A stretch of DNA of 64,000 nt from Eledone cirrhosa (taxonomy: Eukaryota), in contig CAXHJY010001125.1 in NCBI GenBank assembly GCA_964016885.1, positions 62,001-126,000 of the forward strand, read 5' to 3'. This document shows, piece after piece, positions 4,827 through 63,870 of this stretch. Numbering within the stretch: position 1 is the stretch's first letter; every line of letters begins with the position of its first letter. The translations under genes were made by a program, and so were the position numbers. The notes under the pieces were generated by a model. That model worked only from the letters and a program-made list of their open reading frames with translations, made no database searches and was not told the origin of the DNA.

Positions 4827-4863
<37 letters not shown>

Positions 4864-4866
<3 letters not shown>

Positions 4867-4982
4867 CGAAGGAAATGTGGTAAGGAACCAGGTGGACCAT
4901 AACGCACCAAAGTACTCAATACTTAGGGGAGTAGAGTGGGTAATAGGAACGTGTAGGACCCCACGTAGGTCTTACTCGTTCC

Positions 4983-4984
<2 letters not shown>
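4864..4984 (-). mobile_element. Family C Penelope-like terminal-repeat fragment in (TA)n with short fold-back
   Basis: Near-identical to the tail of 9382-9585; small inverted arm TAGGAAC...GTTCCTA. Confidence 0.75.
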
Positions 4985-9381: not shown

Positions 9382-9385
<4 letters not shown>

Positions 9386-9583
9386 AACAAGTAAGACCCC
9401 GACGGCTGAGCTCAAGCCGTTTCGACGGCTAATTCTGTACTATTCTGTACAGAATTAGCCGTCGAAACGGCTTGAGCTCAGCCGTCGGGGTCTTACTTGT
9501 TCCTATTACCCACTCTACTACCCTAAGTATTGAGTACTTTGGTGCGTTATGGTCCACCTGGTTCCTTACCACATTTCCTTCGT

Positions 9584-9585
<2 letters not shown>
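9382..9585 (+). mobile_element. Family C fold-back element in (TA)n
   Basis: Perfect 59-bp inverted arms 9382-9440 and 9447-9505 plus an 80-nt tail; contains GAAACGGCT-tgagctc-AGCCGTC (hammerhead 3' half). Confidence 0.85.
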
Positions 9586-9627
<42 letters not shown>

Positions 9628-10837: not shown

Positions 10838-11037
10838 TAGGAAAATGTTCAGGAGCCCGACGGCAGAGCTCAAGCCGTTTCGACGGCTAGTCGAAACGGC
10901 TCTGCCGTCGGGGTCATACTGGCGTCATACTGCCGTCGGCGTCATACTTTTTTACTATTTCCCACTCTACTACCCTAAGTATTGAGTACTCTGGTGAGTT
11001 ATGGTCCATCTGGTTCCTTACCACAATTCCTTTGTTA
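10838..11037 (+). mobile_element. Family C fold-back element (rearranged)
   Basis: Same arm and tail sequence as 9382-9585 with internal micro-duplications. Confidence 0.8.
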
Positions 11038-11059
11038 TATATATATATATATATATATA

Positions 11060-11254
11060 TAACGAAGGAGATGTGGTAAGGAACCAGGTGGACCATAACG
11101 CACCAAAGTACTCAATACTTAGGGTAGTAGAATGGGTAATAGGAACGAGTAGGACCCCGACGGCTGAGCTCAAGCCGTTTCGACGGGGCTAATTCTGGAG
11201 TCCAGAATTAGCCGTCGAAACGGCTTGAGCTCAGCCGTCGGGGTCCTACTCGTT

Positions 11255-11258
<4 letters not shown>
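11060..11258 (-). mobile_element. Family C fold-back element
   Basis: Tail 11060-11139, then near-perfect hairpin 11140-11258, between TA tracts. Confidence 0.85.
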
Positions 11259-30408: not shown

Positions 30409-33400
30409 CAGTCAGCAGCCGTACACATCACATCCTTACCTACACTAATCTCTAACAGTCAGCAGCCGTACACATCACATCCTTATCTACACTAATCTCT
30501 AACAGTCAGCAGCCGTACACATCACATCCTTACCTACACTAATCTCTAACAGTCAGCAGCCGTACACATCACATCCTTACCTACACTAATCTCTAACAGT
30601 CAGTAGCCGTACCCATCACAACCTTACCTACACTAATCTCTAACAGTCAACAGCCGTACCCATCACATCCTTACCTACACTAATCTCTAACAGTCAACAG
30701 CCGTACCCATCACATCCTTACCTACACTAATCTCTAACAGTCAACAGCCGTACCCATCACATCCTTACCTACACTAATCTCTAACAGTCAGCAGCCGTAC
30801 ACATCACATCCTTACCTACACTAATCTCTAACAGTCAACAGCCGTACCCATCACATCCTTACCTACACTAATCTCTAACAGTCAGCAGCCGTACACATCA
30901 CATCCTTACCTACACTAATCTCTAACAGTCAACAGCCGTACCCATCACATCCTTACCTACACTAATCTCTAACAGTCAACAGCCGTACCCATCACATCCT
31001 TACCTACACTAATCTCTAACAGTCAGCAGCCGTACACATCACAACCTTACCTACACTAATCTCTAACAGTCAGTAGCCGTACCCATCACATCCTTACCTA
31101 CACTAATCTCTAACAGTCAGCAGCCGTACACATCACATCCTTACCTACACTAATCTCTAACAGTCAGCAGCCGTACACATCACATCCTTACCTACACTAA
31201 TCTCTAACAGTCAACAGCCGTACCCATCACATCCTTACCTACACTAATCTCTAACAGTCAGCAGCCGTACCCATCACATCCTTACCTACACTAATCTCTA
31301 ACAGTCAACAGCCGTACCCATCACATCCTTACCTACACTAATCTCTAACAGCCAGTAGCCGTACCCATCACATCCTTACCTACACTAATCTCTAACAGTC
31401 AGCAGCCGTACACATCACATCCTTACCTACACTAATCTCTAACAGTCAACAGCCGTACCCATCACATCCTTACCTACACTAATCTCTAACAGCCAGTAGC
31501 CGTACCCATCACATCCTTACCTACACTAATCTCTAACAGTCAGCAGCCGTACCCATCACATCCTTACCTACACTAATCTCTAACAGTCAGCAGCCGTACA
31601 CATCACATCCTTACCTACACTAATCTCTAACAGTCAACAGCCGTACCCATCACATCCTTACCTACACTAATCTCTAACAGTCAGCAGCCGTACCCATCAC
31701 ATCCTTACCTACACTAATCTCTAACAGTCAGCAGCCGTACCCATCACATCCTTACCTACACTAATCTCTAACAGTCAGTAGCCGTACCCATCACATCCTT
31801 ACCTACACTAATCTCTAACAGTCAGCAGCCGTACCCATCACATCCTTACCTACACTAATCTCTAACAGTCAGCAGCCGTACCCATCACATCCTTACCTAC
31901 ACTAATCTCTAACAGTCAACAGCCGTACCCATCACATCCTTACCTACACTAATCTCTAACAGCCAGTAGCCGTACCCATCACATCCTTACCTACACTAAT
32001 CTCTAACAGTCAGCAGCCGTACCCATCACATCCTTACCTACACTAATCTCTAACAGTCAACAGCCGTACCCATCACATCCTTACCTACACTAATCTCTAA
32101 CAGCCAGTAGCCGTACCCATCACATCCTTACCTACACTAATCTCTAACAGTCAGCAGCCGTACACATCACATCCTTACCTACACTAATCTCTAACAGTCA
32201 ACAGCCGTACCCATCACATCCTTACCTACACTAATCTCTAACAGTCAGCAGCCGTACCCATCACATCCTTACCTACACTAATCTCTAACAGTCAGCAGCC
32301 GTACCCATCACATCCTTACCTACACTAATCTCTAACAGTCAGTAGCCGTACCCATCACATCCTTACCTACACTAATCTCTAACAGTCAGCAGCCGTACCC
32401 ATCACATCCTTACCTACACTAATCTCTAACAGTCAACAGCCGTACCCATCACATCCTTACCTACACTAATCTCTAACAGTCAGCAGCCGTACCCATCACA
32501 TCCTTACCTACACTAATCTCTAACAGTCAGCAGCCGTACACATCACATCCTTACCTACACTAATCTCTAACAGTCAACAGCCGTACCCATCACATCCTTA
32601 CCTACACTAATCTCTAACAGTCAGTAGCCGTACCCATCACATCCTTACCTACACTAATCTCTAACAGTCAGCAGCCGTACCCATCACATCCTTACCTACA
32701 CTAATCTCTAACAGCCAGCAGCCGTACACATCACATCCTTACCTACACTAATCTCTAACAGTCAACAGCCGTACCCATCACATCCTTACCTACACTAATC
32801 TCTAACAGCCAGTAGCCGTACCCATCACATCCTTACCTACACTAATCTCTAACAGTCAGCAGCCGTACCCATCACATCCTTACCTACACTAATCTCTAAC
32901 AGTCAACAGCCGTACCCATCACATCCTTACCTACACTAATCTCTAACAGTCAACAGCCGTACCCATCACATCCTTACCTACACTAATCTCTAACAGCCAG
33001 TAGCCGTACCCATCACATCCTTACCTACACTAATCTCTAACAGTCAGCAGCCGTACCCATCACATCCTTACCTACACTAATCTCTAACAGTCAACAGCCG
33101 TACCCATCACATCCTTACCTACACTAATCTCTAACAGTCAGCAGCCGTACCCATCACATCCTTACCTACACTAATCTCTAACAGCCAGTAGCCGTACCCA
33201 TCACATCCTTACCTACACTAATCTCTAACAGTCAGTAGCCGTACCCATCACATCCTTACCTACACTAATCTCTAACAGCCAGCAGCCGTACCCATCACAT
33301 CCTTACCTACACTAATCTCTAACAGTCAACAGCCGTACCCATCACATCCTTACCTACACTAATCTCTAACAGTCAGCAGCCGTACCCATCACATCCTTAC

Positions 33401-36400
33401 CTACACTAATCTCTAACAGTCAACAGCCGTACCCATCACATCCTTACCTACACTAATCTCTAACAGTCAGCAGCCGTACCCATCACATCCTTACCTACAC
33501 TAATCTCTAACAGCCAGTAGCCGTACCCATCACATCCTTACCTACACTAATCTCTAACAGTCAACAGCCGTACCCATCACATCCTTACCTACACTAATCT
33601 CTAACAGCCAGTAGCCGTACACATCACATCCTTACCTACACTAATCTCTAACAGTCAACAGCCGTACCCATCACATCCTTACCTACACTAATCTCTAACA
33701 GTCAGCAGCCGTACCCATCACATCCTTACCTACACTAATCTCTAACAGTCAACAGCCGTACCCATCACATCCTTACCTACACTAATCTCTAACAGCCAGT
33801 AGCCGTACCCATCACATCCTTACCTACACTAATCTCTAACAGCCAGTAGCCGTACCCATCACATCCTTACCTACACTAATCTCTAACAGTCAACAGCCGT
33901 ACCCATCACATCCTTACCTACACTAATCTCTAACAGTCAACAGCCGTACCCATCACATCCTTACCTACACTAATCTCTAACAGTCAGCAGCCGTACCCAT
34001 CACATCCTTACCTACACTAATCTCTAACAGCCAGTAGCCGTACCCATCACATCCTTACCTACACTAATCTCTAACAGCCAGTAGCCGTACCCATCACATC
34101 CTTACCTACACTAATCTCTAACAGCCAGTAGCCGTACCCATCACATCCTTACCTACACTAATCTCTAACAGCCAGTAGCCGTACCCATCACATCCTTACC
34201 TACACTAATCTCTAACAGCCAGTAGCCGTACACATCACATCCTTACCTACACTAATCTCTAACAGTCAGTAGCCGTACCCATCACATCCTTACCTACACT
34301 AATCTCTAACAGCCAGTAGCCGTACACATCACATCCTTACCTACACTAATCTCTAACAGCCAGTAGCCGTACACATCACATCCTTACCTACACTAATCTC
34401 TAACAGTCAACAGCCGTACCCATCACATCCTTACCTACACTAATCTCTAACAGCCAGTAGCCGTACACATCACATCCTTACCTACACTAATCTCTAACAG
34501 CCAGTAGCCGTACACATCACATCCTTACCTACACTAATCTCTAACAGTCAACAGCCGTACCCATCACATCCTTACCTACACTAATCTCTAACAGCCAGTA
34601 GCCGTACACATCACATCCTTACCTACACTAATCTCTAACAGTCAGTAGCCGTACCCATCACATCCTTACCTACACTAATCTCTAACAGTCAGTAGCCGTA
34701 CCCATCACATCCTTACCTACACTAATCTCTAACAGCCAGTAGCCGTACACATCACATCCTTACCTACACTAATCTCTAACAGTCAGTAGCCGTACCCATC
34801 ACATCCTTACCTACACTAATCTCTAACAGCCAGTAGCCGTACCCATCACATCCTTACCTACACTAATCTCTAACAGTCAACAGCCGTACCCATCACATCC
34901 TTACCTACACTAATCTCTAACAGCCAGTAGCCGTACCCATCACATCCTTACCTACACTAATCTCTAACAGCCAGTAGCCGTACACATCACATCCTTACCT
35001 ACACTAATCTCTAACAGTCAGTAGCCGTACCCATCACATCCTTACCTACACTAATCTCTAACAGCCAGTAGCCGTACCCATCACATCCTTACCTACACTA
35101 ATCTCTAACAGCCAGTAGCCGTACACATCACATCCTTACCTACACTAATCTCTAACAGCCAGTAGCCGTACACATCACATCCTTACCTACACTAATCTCT
35201 AACAGTCAACAGCCGTACCCATCACATCCTTACCTACACTAATCTCTAACAGCCAGTAGCCGTACCCATCACATCCTTACCTACACTAATCTCTAACAGC
35301 CAGTAGCCGTACACATCACATCCTTACCTACACTAATCTCTAACAGTCAGTAGCCGTACCCATCACATCCTTACCTACACTAATCTCTAACAGCCAGTAG
35401 CCGTACCCATCACATCCTTACCTACACTAATCTCTAACAGCCAGTAGCCGTACACATCACATCCTTACCTACACTAATCTCTAACAGTCAGCAGCCGTAC
35501 CCATCACATCCTTACCTACACTAATCTCTAACAGTCAACAGCCGTACCCATCACATCCTTACCTACACTAATCTCTAACAGCCAGTAGCCGTACCCATCA
35601 CATCCTTACCTACACTAATCTCTAACAGCCAGTAGCCGTACACATCACATCCTTACCTACACTAATCTCTAACAGTCAGTAGCCGTACCCATCACATCCT
35701 TACCTACACTAATCTCTAACAGTCAGTAGCCGTACCCATCACATCCTTACCTACACTAATCTCTAACAGCCAGCAGCCGTACCCATCACATCCTTACCTA
35801 CACTAATCTCTAACAGCCAGTAGCCGTACCCATCACATCCTTACCTACACTAATCTCTAACAGCCAGTAGCCGTACACATCACATCCTTACCTACACTAA
35901 TCTCTAACAGCCAGTAGCCGTACCCATCACATCCTTACCTACACTAATCTCTAACAGTCAGTAGCCGTACACATCACATCCTTACCTACACTAATCTCTA
36001 ACAGTCAGTAGCCGTACCCATCACATCCTTACCTACACTAATCTCTAACAGCCAGCAGCCGTACCCATCACATCCTTACCTACACTAATCTCTAACAGTC
36101 AGCAGCCGTACCCATCACATCCTTACCTACACTAATCTCTAACAGTCAACAGCCGTACCCATCACATCCTTACCTACACTAATCTCTAACAGTCAACAGC
36201 CGTACCCATCACATCCTTACCTACACTAATCTCTAACAGTCAGCAGCCGTTCCCATCACATCCTTACCTACACTAATCTCTAACAGTCAACAGCCGTACC
36301 CATCACATCCTTACCTACACTAATCTCTAACAGCCAGCAGCCGTACCCATCACATCCTTACCTACACTAATCTCTAACAGTCAACAGCCGTACCCATCAC

Positions 36401-39400
36401 ATCCTTACCTACACTAATCTCTAACAGTCAGCAGCCGTTCCCATCACATCCTTACCTACACTAATCTCTAACAGTCAACAGCCGTACCCATCACATCCTT
36501 ACCTACACTAATCTCTAACAGCCAGCAGCCGTACCCATCACATCCTTACCTACACTAATCTCTAACAGCCAACAGCCGTACCCATCACATCCTTACCTAC
36601 ACTAATCTCTAACAGTCAGTAGCCGTACCCATCACATCCTTACCTACACTAATCTCTAACAGCCAGCAGCCGTACCCATCACATCCTTACCTACACTAAT
36701 CTCTAACAGTCAGCAGCCGTACCCATCACATCCTTACCTACACTAATCTCTAACAGTCAACAGCCGTACCCATCACATCCTTACCTACACTAATCTCTAA
36801 CAGTCAGCAGCCGTTCCCATCACATCCTTACCTACACTAATCTCTAACAGTCAACAGCCGTACCCATCACATCCTTACCTACACTAATCTCTAACAGCCA
36901 GCAGCCGTACCCATCACATCCTTACCTACACTAATCTCTAACAGTCAGCAGCCGTACCCATCACATCCTTACCTACACTAATCTCTAACAGTCAACAGCC
37001 GTACCCATCACATCCTTACCTACACTAATCTCTAACAGCCAGCAGCCGTACCCATCACATCCTTACCTACACTAATCTCTAACAGTCAGTAGCCGTACCC
37101 ATCACATCCTTACCTACACTAATCTCTAACAGTCAACAGCCGTACCCATCACATCCTTACCTACACTAATCTCTAACAGTCAGTAGCCGTACCCATCACA
37201 TCCTTACCTACACTAATCTCTAACAGTCAACAGCCGTACCCATCACATCCTTACCTACACTAATCTCTAACAGTCAGTAGCCGTACCCATCACATCCTTA
37301 CCTACACTAATCTCTAACAGTCAACAGCCGTACCCATCACATCCTTACCTACACTAATCTCTAACAGTCAACAGCCGTACCCATCACATCCTTACCTACA
37401 CTAATCTCTAACAGTCAACAGCCGTACCCATCACATCCTTACCTACACTAATCTCTAACAGCCAGCAGCCGTACCCATCACATCCTTACCTACACTAATC
37501 TCTAACAGCCAGTAGCCGTACCCATCACATCCTTACCTACACTAATCTCTAACAGTCAACAGCCGTACCCATCACATCCTTACCTACACTAATCTCTAAC
37601 AGTCAACAGCCGTACCCATCACATCCTTACCTACACTAATCTCTAACAGTCAGCAGCCGTTCCCATCACATCCTTACCTACACTAATCTCTAACAGTCAA
37701 CAGCCGTACCCATCACATCCTTACCTACACTAATCTCTAACAGCCAGCAGCCGTACCCATCACATCCTTACCTACACTAATCTCTAACAGCCAGTAGCCG
37801 TACCCATCACATCCTTACCTACACTAATCTCTAACAGTCAACAGCCGTACCCATCACATCCTTACCTACACTAATCTCTAACAGTCAGTAGCCGTACCCA
37901 TCACATCCTTACCTACACTAATCTCTAACAGTCAACAGCCGTACCCATCACATCCTTACCTACACTAATCTCTAACAGCCAGCAGCCGTACCCATCACAT
38001 CCTTACCTACACTAATCTCTAACAGCCAGTAGCCGTACCCATCACATCCTTACCTACACTAATCTCTAACAGTCAACAGCCGTACCCATCACATCCTTAC
38101 CTACACTAATCTCTAACAGTCAACAGCCGTACACATCACATCCTTACCTACACTAATCTCTAACAGTCAGCAGCCGTTCCCATCACATCCTTACCTACAC
38201 TAATCTCTAACAGTCAGCAGCCGTACCCATCACATCCTTACCTACACTAATCTCTAACAGCCAGTAGCCGTACCCATCACATCCTTACCTACACTAATCT
38301 CTAACAGCCAGTAGCCGTACCCATCACATCCTTACCTACACTAATCTCTAACAGCCAGTAGCCGTACCCATCACATCCTTACCTACACTAATCTCTAACA
38401 GTCAACAGCCGTACACATCACATCCTTACCTACACTAATCTCTAACAGTCAGCAGCCGTTCCCATCACATCCTTACCTACACTAATCTCTAACAGTCAGC
38501 AGCCGTACCCATCACATCCTTACCTACACTAATCTCTAACAGCCAGTAGCCGTACCCATCACATCCTTACCTACACTAATCTCTAACAGCCAGTAGCCGT
38601 ACCCATCACATCCTTACCTACACTAATCTCTAACAGTCAGTAGCCGTACACATCACATCCTTACCTACACTAATCTCTAACAGCCAGTAGCCGTACCCAT
38701 CACATCCTTACCTACACTAATCTCTAACAGTCAACAGCCGTACCCATCACATCCTTACCTACACTAATCTCTAACAGTCAACAGCCGTACACATCACATC
38801 CTTACCTACACTAATCTCTAACAGCCAGTAGCCGTACCCATCACATCCTTACCTACACTAATCTCTAACAGTCAGTAGCCGTACACATCACATCCTTACC
38901 TACACTAATCTCTAACAGCCAGTAGCCGTACCCATCACATCCTTACCTACACTAATCTCTAACAGTCAACAGCCGTACCCATCACATCCTTACCTACACT
39001 AATCTCTAACAGCCAGTAGCCGTACCCATCACATCCTTACCTACACTAATCTCTAACAGTCAACAGCCGTACCCATCACATCCTTACCTACACTAATCTC
39101 TAACAGTCAACAGCCGTACACATCACATCCTTACCTACACTAATCTCTAACAGCCAGCAGCCGTACCCATCACATCCTTACCTACACTAATCTCTAACAG
39201 TCAACAGCCGTACCCATCACATCCTTACCTACACTAATCTCTAACAGCCAGTAGCCGTACCCATCACATCCTTACCTACACTAATCTCTAACAGTCAGCA
39301 GCCGTACCCATCACATCCTTACCTACACTAATCTCTAACAGTCAGTAGCCGTACCCATCACATCCTTACCTACACTAATCTCTAACAGTCAACAGCCGTA

Positions 39401-42158
39401 CACATCACATCCTTACCTACACTAATCTCTAACAGCCAGCAGCCGTACCCATCACATCCTTACCTACACTAATCTCTAACAGTCAACAGCCGTACCCATC
39501 ACATCCTTACCTACACTAATCTCTAACAGCCAGTAGCCGTACCCATCACATCCTTACCTACACTAATCTCTAACAGTCAGCAGCCGTACCCATCACATCC
39601 TTACCTACACTAATCTCTAACAGTCAGCAGCCGTACCCATCACATCCTTACCTACACTAATCTCTAACAGCCAGCAGCCGTACCCATCACATCCTTACCT
39701 ACACTAATCTCTAACAGCCAGTAGCCGTACCCATCACATCCTTACCTACACTAATCTCTAACAGTCAGCAGCCGTACCCATCACATCCTTACCTACACTA
39801 ATCTCTAACAGTCAGCAGCCGTACCCATCACATCCTTACCTACACTAATCTCTAACAGTCAGCAGCCGTACCCATCACATCCTTACCTACACTAATCTCT
39901 AACAGTCAACAGCCGTACCCATCACATCCTTACCTACACTAATCTCTAACAGTCAGCAGCCGTACCCATCACATCCTTACCTACACTAATCTCTAACAGC
40001 CAGTAGCCGTACCCATCACAACCTTACCTACACTAATCTCTAACAGTCAACAGCCGTACCCATCACATCCTTACCTACACTAATCTCTAACAGTCAACAG
40101 CCGTACACATCACATCCTTACCTACACTAATCTCTAACAGCCAGTAGCCGTACCCATCACAACCTTACCTACACTAATCTCTAACAGTCAACAGCCGTAC
40201 CCATCACATCCTTACCTACACTAATCTCTAACAGTCAGCAGCCGTACCCATCACATCCTTACCTACACTAATCTCTAACAGTCAGCAGCCGTACCCATCA
40301 CATCCTTACCTACACTAATCTCTAACAGTCAGCAGCCGTTCCCATCACATCCTTACCTACACTAATCTCTAACAGTCAACAGCCGTACCCATCACATCCT
40401 TACCTACACTAATCTCTAACAGTCAGCAGCCGTACCCATCACATCCTTACCTACACTAATCTCTAACAGTCAGCAGCCGTTCCCATCACATCCTTACCTA
40501 CACTAATCTCTAACAGTCAGCAGCCGTACCCATCACATCCTTACCTACACTAATCTCTAACAGTCAGCAGCCGTTCCCATCACATCCTTACCTACACTAA
40601 TCTCTAACAGTCAGCAGCCGTACCCATCACATCCTTACCTACACTAATCTCTAACAGTCAGCAGCCGTTCCCATCACATCCTTACCTACACTAATCTCTA
40701 ACAGTCAGCAGCCGTTCCCATCACATCCTTACCTACACTAATCTCTAACAGTCAACAGCCGTACCCATCACATCCTTACCTACACTAATCTCTAACAGTC
40801 AGCAGCCGTACCCATCACATCCTTACCTACACTAATCTCTAACAGTCAGCAGCCGTACCCATCACATCCTTACCTACACTAATCTCTAACAGTCAGTAGC
40901 CGTACCCATCACATCCTTACCTACACTAATCTCTAACAGCCAGTAGCCGTACACATCACATCCTTACCTACACTAATCTCTAACAGTCAGCAGCCGTACC
41001 CATCACATCCTTACCTACACTAATCTCTAACAGTCAGCAGCCGTACACATCACATCCTTACCTACACTAATCTCTAACAGTCAGCAGCCGTACACATCAC
41101 ATCCTTACCTACACTAATCTCTAACAGCCAGTAGCCGTACCCATCACATCCTTACCTACACTAATCTCTAACAGTCAGTAGCCGTACACATCACATCCTT
41201 ACCTACACTAATCTCTAACAGTCAGCAGCCGTACACATCACATCCTTACCTACACTAATCTCTAACAGTCAGTAGCCGTACACATCACATCCTTACCTAC
41301 ACTAATCTCTAACAGTCAGTAGCCGTACACATCACATCCTTACCTACACTAATCTCTAACAGTCAGTAGCCGTACACATCACATCCTTACCTACACTAAT
41401 CTCTAACAGTCAGTAGCCGTACACATCACATCCTTACCTACACTAATCTCTAACAGTCAGTAGCCGTACACATCACATCCTTACCTACACTAATCTCTAA
41501 CAGTCAGTAGCCGTACACATCACATCCTTACCTACACTAATCTCTAACAGTCAACAGCCGTACACATCACATCCTTACCTACACTAATCTCTAACAGTCA
41601 GTAGCCGTACACATCACATCCTTACCTACACTAATCTCTAACAGTCAGCAGCCGTACCCATCACATCCTTACCTACACTAATCTCTAACAGTCAGTAGCC
41701 GTACACATCACATCCTTACCTACACTAATCTCTAACAGTCAGTAGCCGTACACATCACATCCTTACCTACACTAATCTCTAACAGTCAGCAGCCGTACAC
41801 ATCACATCCTTACCTACACTAATCTCTAACAGTCAGCAGCCGTACACATCACATCCTTACCTACACTAATCTCTAACAGTCAACAGCCGTACACATCACA
41901 TCCTTACCTACACTAATCTCTAACAGTCAACAGCCGTACACATCACAACCTTACCTACACTAATCTCTAACAGCCAGTAGCCGTACACATCACATCCTTA
42001 CCTACACTAATCTCTAACAGCCAGTAGCCGTACACATCACATCCTTACCTACACTAATCTCTAACAGCCAGTAGCCGTACACATCACAACCTTACCTACA
42101 CTAATCTCTAACAGTCAGCAGCCGTACACATCACAACCTTACCTACACTAATCTCTAA
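30409..42158. repeat. 47-bp satellite, 250 units
   Basis: Unit CAG(T/C)CA(GC/GT/AC)AGCCGTAC(A/C)CATCACATCCTTACCTACACTAATCTCTAA; 11,750 bp = 250 x 47; phase preserved at 30421, 33241, 36061, 38881 and 41701. Confidence 0.98.
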
Positions 42159-42175
42159 TTACTATTTTTCCCGTT

Positions 42176-42362
42176 GGTGGTTTGGCAGTATCGGTAGAGG
42201 GTCAGCCACACTGCTTTGCAGCATAGTTACGGCCCTTTATGGTCTGAGTTCAAATCCCGCCGAGGTTAACTTTACCTTTCATCCTTACGGGGTCGATAAA
42301 ATAAAGTACCAGTAATGCACTCGGGTAATCGCTGGCCTTGTGCCAAAAATAGAAACAACTAT
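42176..42362 (+). mobile_element. tRNA-derived SINE
   Basis: A and B boxes, core and tail match the family. Confidence 0.9.
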
Positions 42363-42953
42363 TCTTAACGTTTATCTTAACTGAGTGTGAATATTTAGGG
42401 CACCCCATAGAAAGAATGTTTCGCAATGTTCATTCGAACTCCCAGCTTTCTGAGTTCAAACCTTGCGAAGGGAGATGTTGATCTTCCTTCAAATACGACA
42501 ACAACAACAACAACACCCACAACAACAATCTTTATCATCCACTTTAATCTAATTGCTCTTTATAATTGGTTTCCTTCCTCTAGTGGTGGTGATGGTGGTG
42601 GCGTAGTTGTTTTCTGTTATTGTTTGTGCTCCTGCTTGTTGTTGTTGGGGAGGGGGGTTGCTAGGTTTCACATTGTTGCAGCACCAGATTTTTTCTCTCC
42701 TTAATCTGCCCCTCTTCCACCACCCTTCTCTTCCTATCCCCATCTCACCCCTCTCTCCCCCTCTCCTCTTCCTTCCCCCTTTCACTCCCTCTTTCTTCCC
42801 TTCTCCCTCTCAATTCCTTCACCTTCTCTCTCTTCCCTTTTGTCCCCCCCATCCCCTCTTTCTCCCTCTCCCCCACCGCACTCTATCCAGTTACTTACGT
42901 CATTCTCCAGACTCCCATCTCAGACATTCCATGGTTAAAGAAAGGGGAAAACA

Positions 42954-43128
<175 letters not shown>

Positions 43129-43424: not shown

Positions 43425-43488
43425 ATTTTATTATACATATTTCAAGGGCAACCAAGGCAAATTATGGTGCGCTTTCATCAGATAAAAT
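43425..43488 (-). ncRNA. Type I minimal hammerhead ribozyme (family A)
   Basis: attttat-CTGATGA-AAGCGCACCA-loop-TGGTTGCCCTT-GAAA-TATGTATA-ataaaat; flanks homologous to 12064-12200. Confidence 0.7.
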
Positions 43489-45397: not shown

Positions 45398-45650
45398 TGT
45401 ATGTATGTATGTATATATGTATGTATGTATGTGTGTGTATGTGTGTATGTGTGTATGTGTGTATGTGTGTATGTGTGTATGTATGTATGTATGTATGTAT
45501 GTATATATGTATGTATGTATGTGTGTATATGTGTGTGTATGTGTGTATGTATGTACTTAGGGTAGTAGAGTGGGTAATAGGAAAAGACCCATCGAACCCA
45601 TGCAAGTATGGAGAAGCGGACGTAAAATGATATATATATAATATATATAT

Positions 45651-57960: not shown

Positions 57961-59071
57961 TTAGCATCTGGATAATACATCTACTTCATCCTTTAACAGT
58001 TGGTTCCTATGCCACAGTTCTCGTTTTATCCCTCAGTCCGGATATCAACAGGATTCTGTTGTTTTTGCCAACAAGAACATAAAAATATGTAAGTGAATAT
58101 ATATTGAAACACCGACCTTTTCTAGGTGAACAAACGACAAAACCTTTACAAAATGTTCTCTAAACAAACTTTAGAACGTTCTGGAACGTACATACTGTCA
58201 TACTCTGATTGGACAATAGTAGATTCGCCCAATGGGTGTTACGTGTCACCCTAGTTTCCACCAATCCATATCGAAATGACTTCTACAAGACTAGAACCGT
58301 TTCGTTCATATGATATTCATCATTCCAGGGCACCGTGTAATGAGATCGTATCCAGAACTACTTAGTTTTCAAAGTGAACTTCGTAACCACGAGGCCATAT
58401 TTGAGTCCTTTGTCCACATCTTGAATAACTTTTAAAATGTCAGGAGAGCAAATAATAACAAATATATATACATTTTCCTATATATAAAATACTTTTTATT
58501 TGATGGTTAAAACAGTTTCCTGGTTCTGTGGTTAATCATAACCATGAAATGTTTCTGTCTAACTATATATCCCATGCTGTGTCATAATCCTTCTCCGTAC
58601 TTCTCTGTTGGTCGATTTAATTTCACACAGTTTTAACGAAGCGTGACCGTAATATTTTAGAGGAGAGAGTGGCTTAGCATATTGTATCAAATATGTAAGG
58701 AAACCGTTTTTAAATAGGTTGACGGTAAAGAGAGCAGAACTAGTAAAAAAAAAAACGTCTGGACGTATAAGAACAGATCAATCAAAGATAATTCTAGTAT
58801 TACATGATATATCGTGCGATACTATATCATGGTATAACATGATATAGTATTACATGATATGGTATAACAAGATATAACTATATGTTATACCACGATATAT
58901 TGTGTAATACTATATCATGGTATAACCTGATATGGTTGATCCGAAGCTGTGATAAAGAAACTTGTCCAAGATACCACGTACAGGGATCGAACCCGGAACC
59001 TCATGACTGCCAAGTGTACATCTTAAGTACTCGGCCACGCCTGTGACCACGGTGATAAGATTTTACTAAGT

Positions 59072-59667
59072 GTCTGTCAACAGACCTACTGAGACCTGGT
59101 CAGTCAACAGACCTGGTCAGTCAACAGACCTAGCCAGTCAACAGACCTAGCCTGTCAACAGACCTAGTCTGTCAACAGACCTAGTCTGTCAACAGACCTA
59201 GTCAGTCAACAGACCTAGTCAGTCAACAGACCTAGTCAGTCAACAGACCTAGTCTGTCAACAGACCTAGTCTGTCAACAGACCTAGTCTGTCAACAGACC
59301 TAGTCTGTCAACAGACCTAGTCTGTCAACAGACCTAGTCAGTCAACAGACCTAGTCTGTCAACAGACCTAGTCTGTCAACAGACCTAGTCAGTCAACAGA
59401 CCTAGTCAGTCAACAGACCTAGTCAGTCAACAGACCTAGTCTGTCAACAGACCTAGTCTGTCAACAGACCTAGTCTGTCAACAGACCTAGTCTGTCAACA
59501 GACCTAGTCTGTCAACAGACCTAGTCTGTCAACAGACCTAGTCTGTCAACAGACCTAGTCTGTCAACAGACCTAGTCTGTCAACAGACCTAGTCTGTCAA
59601 CAGACCTAGTCAGTCAACAGACCTAGTCTGTCAACAGACCTAGTCAGTCAACAGACCTAGTCAGTCA
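59072..59667. repeat. 17-bp minisatellite, about 34 copies
   Basis: gtcaacagacctagtc(t/a). Confidence 0.96.
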
Positions 59668-60287
59668 TCTGTGACCGACTTAGACAACCATATGACTAAC
59701 AATAGCGTTGAGTCATTCAAGAAATACTTCTAATTATTACCAACTTATTATAATTAGTGCAGCCACGACTGCAGCAAGTTACACACTCACATGCATTACT
59801 GCATATTTCAGCGTTTCATTGTAATTTCCTTCAAACCTGACCAGGCTTGAATTTTGCTTATCAAATCGATAAGATAAACAATAGAAAGAACCTAGATCGA
59901 TTTAGCCAATCAATTATATTTCCTTACAGGTAATATATTTTACCTAGTGAAAGGAAATCAAATGTGAATTTCTTAGAGGGTGATGGGTATGGCTGGAAAG
60001 GTGGAGAGTGGTTATTGCGGTTGTTGTTATTGTTGTTACTGTTGCTGCTGCTGCTGTTGTTACTGGTGTTCTTCCTGTTCTTCCTGTTGTTCTTCCTATT
60101 GTTGTTACTGTTGTTGCTGTGGTTACTGTTTTGTTGTTGCTGCTGTTGTTGCTGTTGTTGTTAAAATTATGGTCCTTATATATACTCGTGGTTAATAGAT
60201 TCTCATTATTCTGTAACAGCAGAAAATATCTAAAAATAGGTTTGTAAATTGAAATGTTTAATGCGGTTTAATAATATTACTATTTGG

Positions 60288-61259: not shown

Positions 61260-61428
61260 TAGGAAAAGAGTCAGGACCCCAGCGGCTGAGCTCCGGCCGG
61301 TTCGACAGCTAGGTCGGAGCTCAGCCGTCGGGGTCCTGACTCTTTTCCTATTACCCACTCTACTACCCAGTATCGAGTACTTTGGTGCGTTATGGTCCAC
61401 CTGGTTACTTACTACAAGTCCTTCGTTA
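61260..61428 (+). mobile_element. Family C fold-back element in (TA)n
   Basis: TAGGAAAAGAGTCAGGACCCC...GGGGTCCTGACTCTTTTCCTA plus tail. Confidence 0.82.
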
Positions 61429-61699
61429 TATATATATATTGCCGAGTACGGGAATAATTGAAGGGACCCATTTACGTGCGTTGTATTGCAGCGAATGACT
61501 GTGCATACTCTGGGAGTTTATTTAACATTACCTATTGAGTACCCTGCTGAGATGTAACTGGTCCTAACAGTGAAACCCATGTCAATTCCGTCAACTCATT
61601 TATATATTTATATATACTTCAAGTTAAACTTGTTTAATCTCCTTTTCCTTGGACGCCTTCTCACTTCAGTAGTAATAGTAGTAGTAGTAGTAGTAGTAG

Positions 61700-61952: not shown

Positions 61953-62009
<57 letters not shown>

Positions 62010-62013
<4 letters not shown>

Positions 62014-62606
62014 AAAAAGTATGACCCCGACGGCAGAGCTCAAGCCGTTTCGACGGTCTATGTCAAACTGGATGAATTTTGTGTCTCGTTTGTCCTCCAT
62101 ATTCCTGAACCAAGGGCGCTGACCCATAGGCTAAGTCTCGCGTTTTGCTTAACTTTTGGTATAACGCGGTCTAGGATCTTTTTACTGATTCTCCCTATGT
62201 CCGACTTCGTTGGGTTTATAAGCCTAATAAACGAGGTCGGATTTGTGGTCCTTCAGTGTGAAGTAGGGAGTCCGTGGGTCTAGGGGTTCAGTGCGGTCGG
62301 CGACCCCGAGGCTAGAGGTAATTTGTTGTCCATCTCGATTTATGTCCTCGATAATTGAATGGTTAGCCTTTTTATAGGTGGAGTTTAGGCTGCTTCTGAT
62401 CAGTGTGTGGCATCTGTCAGGGTTGACGAAGTAGAGGTTTCCAGATTTGTCCGAGTGCCCCATGATGTCGTTGGTGTTTTCATACTCTGTTATTTTGCTA
62501 CGGAGTTTTTGTAGGAATCTGTTGTGTCTGGGTTTGAACTTAATGCTCTTGACCGGGTGGAAAAGGTCGTTCTCGAAGGGTGAGAGCATAGGGTTCAGAG
62601 GGGGAG

Positions 62607-62609
<3 letters not shown>
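62010..62609 (-). mobile_element. Penelope-like element RT fragment (frameshifted) fused to a family C terminal repeat
   Basis: FENDL, SDKSGNLY, TYKKA, YFTLKDHK, RLINPTKSDIGRISKKILDR and WF..FIQFDI over three frames, followed in the same sense by CCGTCGAAACGGCTTGAGCTCTGCCGTCGGGGTC; TA tracts on both sides. Confidence 0.8.
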
Positions 62610-62643
<34 letters not shown>

Positions 62644-63192: not shown

Positions 63193-63870
63193 TCTAGGGC
63201 GGGTAAAATTCCCGAGATCCATGGACGAGTTCTCTCCAGGATGAGAGACAAGTTCTCCCTCATAATCGCTGCCATATTCTGCGCCTCCAAGAGACCAGTG
63301 TCTGTCCTTAGGGCATCAACATATGTCAACCTCGGTCTTCCTCTTCCAGTGTGTCCATGCAGGGGCTCCCACAGGAGCACTGAGTGCAGTGTCAACTCTG
63401 GATATCGGTGATTCTGTGGACCGTCACTGCCTGATGAAGATCTTACAGGCTTATGGAATCCCCAAGAAGATAGTGGACCTGATATCACTGCTCTAGACCA
63501 ACACCAAAGCCCAAGTCATTACACCTGATGGGATGACGGAGTTCTTTGAGATACTGGCTGGAGTGCTCCAGGGAGACACATCGGCTCCCTAGCTTTTTAT
63601 CATCGCAGTGGACTATTGTATGTGCCTTGCGCTGGAGAAACACCAGGACTCTGGCTTTACTGTAACACTTGGCTCAGAGCAGAAGAGTTAAGGTGAAAAA
63701 GATATCGGATGCTGAATTTGCCGACGACATAGTTCTGGTGACAAACACAGTGAAAGAGGCAGAGAAGTTGATGTAGGAGGTGGAGACTGTGTCGATGAGT
63801 GTGGGGTTGAGAATGAATGAGATTGAAACGAAGTATCTGCTAGAGAATATTAAGAAGCCAGAGAAAATAT
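63193..63870. mobile_element. RTE-group LINE remnant: 3' end on minus strand (63193-63420), RT core on plus strand (63431-63870)
   Basis: Minus: LLWEPLHGHTGRGRPRLTYVDALRTDTG. Plus: LMKILQAYGIP, GVLQGDT.AP, EFADDIVL, VGLRMN..TKYL, with stops. Confidence 0.85.

Follow-up and report, generated by a model that had tools for sequence, protein, structure and literature searches.

We examined a window of 64,000 nt of Eledone cirrhosa DNA (contig CAXHJY010001125.1, positions 62,001 to 126,000; assembly GCA_964016885.1), and all positions below refer to this window. Near its end, on the minus strand, a fragment of the reverse transcriptase (RT) gene of a Penelope-like element (PLE), assigned by motifs to the Hydra clade, occupies 62057..62609 (-) and is directly adjoined, in the same sense, by the last 47 nt of a pseudo-LTR (pLTR) at 62010..62056 (-). 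The RT fragment, read from 62609 to 62057, is 553 nt long, encodes the motifs TLKDHK, RLINPTKSDIG and FIQFDI, and runs from about codon 64 (around 190 nt downstream of the element ATG) to one codon and 2 nt past the Asp of motif A. Its motifs are split over two frames because of two deletions, of 11 nt and 14 nt, in this copy. The 47-nt stretch corresponds to positions +14 to +60 from the putative RNA start (+1) and holds the 3' half of a type I hammerhead: from 62056 to 62010 we read the 3' strand of stem II, GAAA, stem III, the GUC triplet, the 3' strand of stem I and TTCCTA, the last being priming site 1 of the element, where the copy terminates. The predicted cleavage position, read from the sequence as GUC followed by GGGG, falls at 62028..62029 (-), and the 5' half of the hammerhead core is missing. 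Two (TA)n target tracts border the copy, at 61968..62009 on the 3' end of the element and at 62610..62641 on its truncated 5' end. At the junction itself (62056..62061, minus strand) the two parts share a 4-nt microhomology, ATAG, with a one-base offset, and about 2.1 kb of the element is skipped.

The initial annotation of this region, made from the letters alone, had placed the break at the first catalytic Asp, the same-sense join to the hammerhead 3' half at stem II and the end at the TTCCTA/(TA)n point, and all three readings hold. Its RT fragment of about 550 bp was also right in length and in the three motifs, but it is not the N-terminus of the protein.

Apart from this family, the window contains a satellite at about 30300-43000, made of 47-nt units that are 95-97% alike and present in around 250 copies or more, and a tandem array of an 18-nt unit at 59070-59670 with more than 30 copies. 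Reading by eye, we also noted a decayed RT sequence of non-LTR type at 63460-63870 (+) and a tRNA-like stretch, perhaps the head of a SINE, at about 58960-59030 (-).

A DNA search of the same genome with the window RT part returned 1,356 candidates; we scored 40 of them and, from the 39 other than the window, fetched 20 with long flanks. The window RT part was 88-93% identical to the 39 other scored copies and carried 16 substitutions in 553 nt, which is inside the range of 29 other copies, while its 47-nt arm was identical to the matching stretch of a natural copy (L041). The two observations are compatible with a single age for both parts, without proving it. The exact junction pattern occurred once in the 3.0-Gb genome, at the window itself, and none of the 39 other scored copies extended beyond RT position 553; a recurrent junction was thus ruled out. 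Contigs of one DNA sample, compared with the element, had the same 3' ends, tandem joins and some hairpin joins; the window junction was absent among the 15 listed of their 74 joints, a result that we do not use as evidence.

In 19 of the 20 long copies the same arm lay downstream of the RT piece, at a distance of about 2.1 kb (1.4-2.7 kb in rearranged copies), which rules out a chance adjacency, and in 12 of the 20 a whole arm with an 80-nt tail was found 280 nt upstream of it. The element unit measures 3,126 nt and lies within (TA)n; a single ORF (ATG at +232, stop near +2388), coding for the RT, a CxCx5C linker and, at the C-terminus, a GIY-YIG endonuclease, is enclosed by two pLTRs. Partial-tandem pLTRs, inverted 5' copies and the tail were all present in the family. 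Since the long copies bear the arm and the tail around the RT ORF, the hairpin repeat that the initial annotation had called family C is the last 60 nt of the pLTR of this element plus its 80-nt PLE tail, and the separate autonomous partner suggested there has to be abandoned. The physical link between family C and a PLE RT is true, but it is better seen in the full copies, and the unique window junction, which had been taken as the best evidence, is its weakest link. As for the features to check named in the same annotation, C-terminal GIY-YIG motifs are present in most of the 20 long copies, a hammerhead of type I layout is found in the complete pLTR, and the long copies did not end in unrelated termini, as the recurrence of the arm in 19 of 20 indicates. 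The window copy is therefore an internally deleted derivative of a 3.1-kb Hydra-clade PLE, from which about 2.1 kb is missing.

The 20 long copies kept most of the expected motifs, both in the RT (RW[KR] in 18, with RWR as the form of the family; DKT in 18; FDI in 19; YxDD in 18) and in the linker and endonuclease (CxCx5C in 11; the GIY-type motif, here VIY, in 18; YIG in 17; CxxC-EE in 18; CxH in 17). The CxxC between GIY and YIG that marks the CCHH-type endonuclease was found in none of the 20, and none of them had an intact whole open frame. Among 7,998 scored protein candidates, 1,621 were relatives; the best 120 were 36-53% identical, the motifs are shared by the relatives, and the residues Y378, Y391, G393, R402 and H406, together with the linker cysteines C357 and C359, were invariant over 102 relatives. 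The predicted structural model (pLDDT 85) gave fold matches to the RTs of retrons, TERT and group II introns, with TERT not singled out. A Pfam GIY-YIG match was obtained in only one of 15 aligned proteins (E 0.006), the own frames of the family gave no Pfam RT or GIY-YIG match, and a PDB search by sequence returned nothing useful. Many Hydra-like PLE relatives were found in metagenome collections on contigs of 2-3 kb; one relative (P0052) is labelled as a gammaproteobacterial hypothetical protein and is probably animal DNA in a bin.

By its motifs, the element belongs to the EN+ PLEs and, within these, to the Hydra clade, because it combines an RWK-type motif, DKT, CxCx5C, the absence of CCHH, CxxC/CxH and (TA)n targets. 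These features define the Hydra clade in the available text of Craig et al. 2021 (PMC8557442), where the clade also resembles our element in its C-terminal GIY-YIG without CCHH, in CxxC and CxH beside a conserved E and N, in its one ORF, in the type I hammerhead near the 3' end, in inverted 5'-truncated copies and in the tail. Within the part of its supplement that was available, matches to TLKDHK and RLINP fell in Hydra entries, as judged by eye among the 7 places shown per term. The Naiad clade, described in the same text as having an N-terminal endonuclease, CxC, DKA and a fingers insertion, was rejected, the endonuclease here being C-terminal and the motif DKT. The Eledone element differs from the Hydra families in the available list (PMC8557442) in several respects: it has 3.1 kb, whereas those families are mostly below 3 kb; its hammerhead core has U3-A8 or C3.A8, in contrast to CTGANGA in all listed Hydra hammerheads; and its long stem II carries a 33-nt loop, its tail measures 80 nt and its stumps number in the tens of thousands. 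The available supplement of that paper does not contain a 10-nt motif taken from the hammerhead of this element.

In the complete pLTR the hammerhead is laid out as type I, stem II being long, loop II 33 nt and stem III 5 pairs in length, and stems I to III all appear in the minimum-energy fold of L041. The exact pattern of the core plus 5' stem II occurred 4,594 times in the genome. A hand count of the 3-8 core pair in the first 100 of these 4,594 matches listed gave 69 with U3-A8, 30 with C3.A8, one degenerate and none with G8. The U3-A8 covariation is known from Schistosoma PLEs, according to the accessible text of PMC4209133. Judging from its core, the C3.A8 hammerhead may be weak or dead as a ribozyme; the subfamily with this mismatch (30 of the 100 listed cores, including loci L134, L143, L144 and L154) has spread regardless. 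Rfam gave no match within the window, where the family is represented by half motifs only. We consider the element a member of the Hydra clade with a variant, predicted ribozyme. Another AT-rich family of the window, at 14770-14801, 12105-12144 and 43440-43481 (-), has canonical CTGATGA..GAAA hammerhead-like cores with a long stem III.

Several short stumps of the element lie in the window itself. At 9382..9587 (+) an inverted site-1 arm and a direct arm with tail turn at +1, and at 11058..11258 (-) a second hairpin stump has a G beside +1 at the turn. A rearranged hairpin stump at 10838..11039 (+) has arms that are unlike in their subfamily letters, and another, of a different subfamily, is found at 61260..61430 (+), 580 nt from the junction copy. 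We also identified a site-1 arm that stands alone and adjoins unrelated DNA at about +7 (12988..13041, plus strand) and a small remnant of the pLTR end and the start of the tail (45554..45590, minus strand). Finally, in two short hairpin stumps the turn coincides with the predicted cleavage site (4862..4984, minus strand) or falls near it (13072..13187, plus strand), which hints that cleaved RNA is sometimes copied. For cleaved RNA as a template at the genome level the signal is weak: in a hand count of the first 100 rows, starts at the cleavage site were seen in 20-26 of 52 distinct places, and direct TA joins at this site numbered about 8, against 1-5 at neighbouring positions, a faint peak that CpG decay can mimic and that is not decisive.

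Across the genome, the exact 32-nt arm pattern was present 32,266 times, and tight head-to-head hairpins were present 11,274 times by exact pattern. The first 100 of the 32,266 listed places, which correspond to 78 loci in the first 20 Mb of contig C1, were taken as the sample, and arms were scored when the anchor motif was kept and lay at least 320 nt from the locus edge (157 arms). The 5' ends were strongly concentrated: 141 of the 157 arms stopped 0-21 nt upstream of the anchor, 16 continued for at least 40 nt, and none ended between 22 and 39 nt. From these stops we defined +1, an A in hammerhead loop II, with 108 of the 141 short arms ending at or inside it; the other 33 matched the element for 1-8 nt past +1, some of these matches resembling added A runs or chance matches to the partner arm. 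At +1, junctions in L062, L115 and L066 had A runs (T in sense) that reached about 16 nt, similar to reiterative or untemplated addition by an RT. The partner of the short arm was an inverted arm in 125 cases (9 of them binned as 'long' by our script, with the same turning place), TA or host DNA in 13 and a sense join in 3; a sense join to ORF sequence was found in none of the 141. The stop zone thus requires no partner arm, since 13 arms join TA or host DNA.

Inserted arms had their 3' ends fixed at two positions, +60 (site 1) and +140 (site 2). Of 53 hairpins, 47 could be typed, and all but one of these (46) combined an arm that has the tail with a non-tail, site-1 arm. The longer arm at the centre was the tail arm in 24 of these 46, the site-1 arm in 14 and neither in 8, with no regular bias (p 0.14). 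Both arms shared the subfamily letter in 50 of 50 hairpins, with an edit distance of 1.7 compared with 4.6 after shuffling; in another listing (the first 50 of 2,728), 2 of the 50 hairpins had mixed letters. A bulged hairpin followed both priming sites in 3 of 4 folded copies, and site 2 in all 4; small bulged hairpins were seen in L033, L040 and L041 at +60 to +95 and +140 to +170. A MITE-like hairpin copied as a unit was ruled out, as the centres differ in length and sequence between copies. Non-LTR retrozymes, which in the available text of 10.64898/2026.07.22.740005 are tandem units with a complete hammerhead each, were likewise rejected, the stumps being inverted pairs with half motifs.

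The base next to +1 suggests what the stop zone may represent. For arms joined to TA behind a T there were 173 places, and the first 100 listed, a few of which are tandem duplicates, had a G (93) or a C (7) before +1; the own base of the element at this position is T or C, so the G is untemplated. In that TA register, the preceding G was present in 14 of 86 rows for +1 (hand count), compared with 1 of 100 for an internal A (+12) taken as control. Hairpin centres, in which host DNA is not involved, agreed with this: among the first 50 of 2,728 listed, the one-base centres were G:C in 9 of 10, and a G on both arms was found in 5 of 50 against 1 of 50 for the reverse. The other TA register gave the contrary result (G 42, C 58), and host TACA units may lie behind this excess of C. 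The context of +1 is TTAGT or TCAGT, which we take to resemble the arthropod initiator. An untemplated G before the start is the expected trace of cap copying from work on LINE-1. Because the untemplated G is enriched at +1, we infer that +1 is the capped transcription start of the element RNA, and a capped RNA 5' end is the likelier cause of the stop than a structure at stem II. A search of the openly accessible literature found no published model of PLE ends that involves a cap mark or two primers.

We explain the window copy, and regard this as the probable account, by a single insertion in which a short cDNA ending near a likely capped 5' end was mis-joined to the RT region. A capped sense RNA would start at +1 in loop II, and the element protein would nick a (TA)n target on its two strands; on the sense RNA, one of these would prime at site 1 (+60) and the other at site 2 (+140), and each cDNA, 60 or 140 nt long, would finish by running off the template at +1. 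End-joining of the two in head-to-head orientation would give the hairpin stumps, and the window copy would represent an infrequent side product, with a short cDNA joined to an internal site through the 4-nt microhomology. An RNA starting at +1 would carry a half-ribozyme at its 5' end, so that only the 3' copy would cut. Cutting of both strands and two internal initiation sites that define the tail have been described in vitro for the anole PLE, in the accessible text of PMC11167929.

A simple run-off at +1 does not account for the long copies. Of 12 that contain a 5' +1, 11 pass it scarless for 38-698 nt, which calls for templates of a second class, circular or produced by read-through, or else for a jump guided by homology: either the long copies come from another template, such as read-through RNA or circles made by two complete ribozymes, or the cDNA jumps from +1 to the homologous 3' repeat. 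A scar at +1, as a sign of strand transfer, was not seen in the long copies. The same contrast, between 11 of 12 scarless long copies and 141 of 157 arms that stop at this point, would be expected if the stumps were a true non-autonomous class, that is, solo pLTRs transcribed from +1 into their flanks and copied in trans, with the ORF copies derived from other RNA (read-through, ribozyme-made circles). The excess of arms over core-bearing pLTRs (about 7:1) and the conservation of U3-A8 in 69 of 100 listed cores point in this direction, and a circle route has been proposed in PMC4209133, as far as its available text goes. Nevertheless, the centres vary from copy to copy, which implies that the hairpin is not copied as a unit, cleavage-site starts form only a weak peak, and the window copy itself requires an RNA that bears the ORF. 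We see this class as a possibility that carries some weight; it is compatible with our preferred explanation.

The window junction could also have arisen after insertion, by loss of 2.1 kb from a 5'-truncated copy through microhomology-mediated repair, which would leave the element and the hairpin mechanism unchanged. Internal deletions with overlaps of 2-6 nt are known in this family (L003, L010, L012, L015 and L130), the junction is unique and has a 4-nt microhomology, the window RT part carries two further small deletions, and most other internal deletions have breakpoints outside the stop zone. Sense joins between arm and ORF are rare, with none among the 141 short arms and one among 29 other RT-selected copies, and internal deletions with other breakpoints are commoner than sense joins at the stop zone; given this rarity, the window join may be a later deletion. 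On the other side, the right break of the junction (+14) lies on the margin of the stop zone. A random break would fall in this zone of about 30 nt in only some 1.5% of cases (30 of about 2,100 nt), compared with 141 of 157 arms that end there. In another copy (L002/L031) the ORF end is joined in sense to +7, and two copies of the anchored sample (L119 and L121) have local deletions with similar joins. Because a random deletion would so seldom land in the stop zone, we are fairly confident, on few cases, that the window junction was formed at insertion, and we consider a later deletion rather unlikely. A template switch at insertion is the likely source of the junction, with a later deletion as the possible alternative.

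The initial annotation had attributed this switch to stem II. It was correct about the place, in that the 3' strand of this stem contains the window break, a position shared by the ends of 10 of the 157 sampled arms, but probably wrong about the cause, as the main stop zone lies in loop II and bears the untemplated G. If the RT stalled at the stem II helix, the arms should start at the foot of the stem on its 3' side, whereas the bulk end 7-14 nt beyond the position of the window break, in loop II, and the G specific to +1 would be left unexplained; we regard such a stall as improbable. Slightly more doubtful still is the formation of the hairpins by self-priming (fold-back), for example on antisense RNA, a model published for the head-to-head inverted pLTRs of rotifer PLEs (PMC3846280, in its available text) and in keeping with the shared subfamily letters in 50 of 50 hairpins, given that both outer ends are fixed on (TA)n, one of each kind, that neither arm is regularly longer, that some centres have an extra G on both arms and 2 of 50 hairpins have mixed letters, and that it is a sense RNA whose 5' end the G marks.

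Returning to the two-primer explanation, a more extended version of it would make the stumps, the long copies and the window junction records of one full PLE cycle. A single capped sense RNA, starting within the hammerhead and dividing it, would offer two fixed sites at which a dimeric RT-endonuclease primes both cut (TA)n strands, and both cDNAs would run to the template end as strong-stop DNA; their joining would give the head-to-head, one-tailed form that is typical of PLEs, a retrovirus-like transfer to the homologous 3' repeat would rebuild the pLTR and its promoter, and the window junction would be a failed transfer. We put this forward as a tentative scheme.

LINE-1 offers the nearest parallel outside PLEs: in twin priming, both target strands prime on one RNA, which results in an inversion, and an untemplated G is found at the capped 5' end. 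In LINE-1 the internal place at which the second primer anneals varies, and each of the two cDNAs copies a different part of the RNA, while here two fixed sites lie 80 nt apart and the arms overlap and share a common 5' point. Among PLEs, Poseidon_Ac (PAc; Frangieh et al. 2024, PMC11167929) is similar, in the available text, in the use by its RT of two start sites close to where pLTR and ORF meet, by which the tail is defined, in the cutting of both strands of AT-rich DNA, in a predicted dimer and in ribozyme cleavage that is dispensable; PAc belongs to another clade, and in that available text we found no treatment of the cDNA end, a cap mark or the joining of two cDNAs into an inverted pair. 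The Cercyon PLEs of Schistosoma (Cervera and de la Pena 2014, PMC4209133) share, in the part of the paper available, the U3-A8 covariation in the pLTR and pairs of motifs on opposite strands 100-700 bp apart; their hammerheads are minimal, without a stable stem III, whereas that of Eledone has a 5-pair stem III and a putative start inside loop II. The Penelope element of Drosophila virilis (Schostak et al. 2008, PMC2377424, available text) also starts inside the pLTR at an initiator, and its partial tandems rebuild the promoter. Its intron begins 46 nt past the start and the hammerhead lies at the 3' end of that intron (PMC4209133, available text), so its start is upstream of the ribozyme, in contrast to the Eledone start, which would split it.

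Taken alone, the window junction is an ordinary broken transposon copy, and its value lies in the population of stumps to which it leads. This population bears on the question of how PLEs make one-tailed, head-to-head inverted ends and how they rebuild the pLTR. More than 11,000 hairpins, with a cap-like G, suggest a sense-strand model with two primers and defined coordinates (+1, +60 and +140), which would be testable with the in vitro assay already available for PLEs. Provided that the start site is correct, beginning transcription in the middle of the ribozyme would be a simple way for the element to limit cutting to the 3' end of its RNA.
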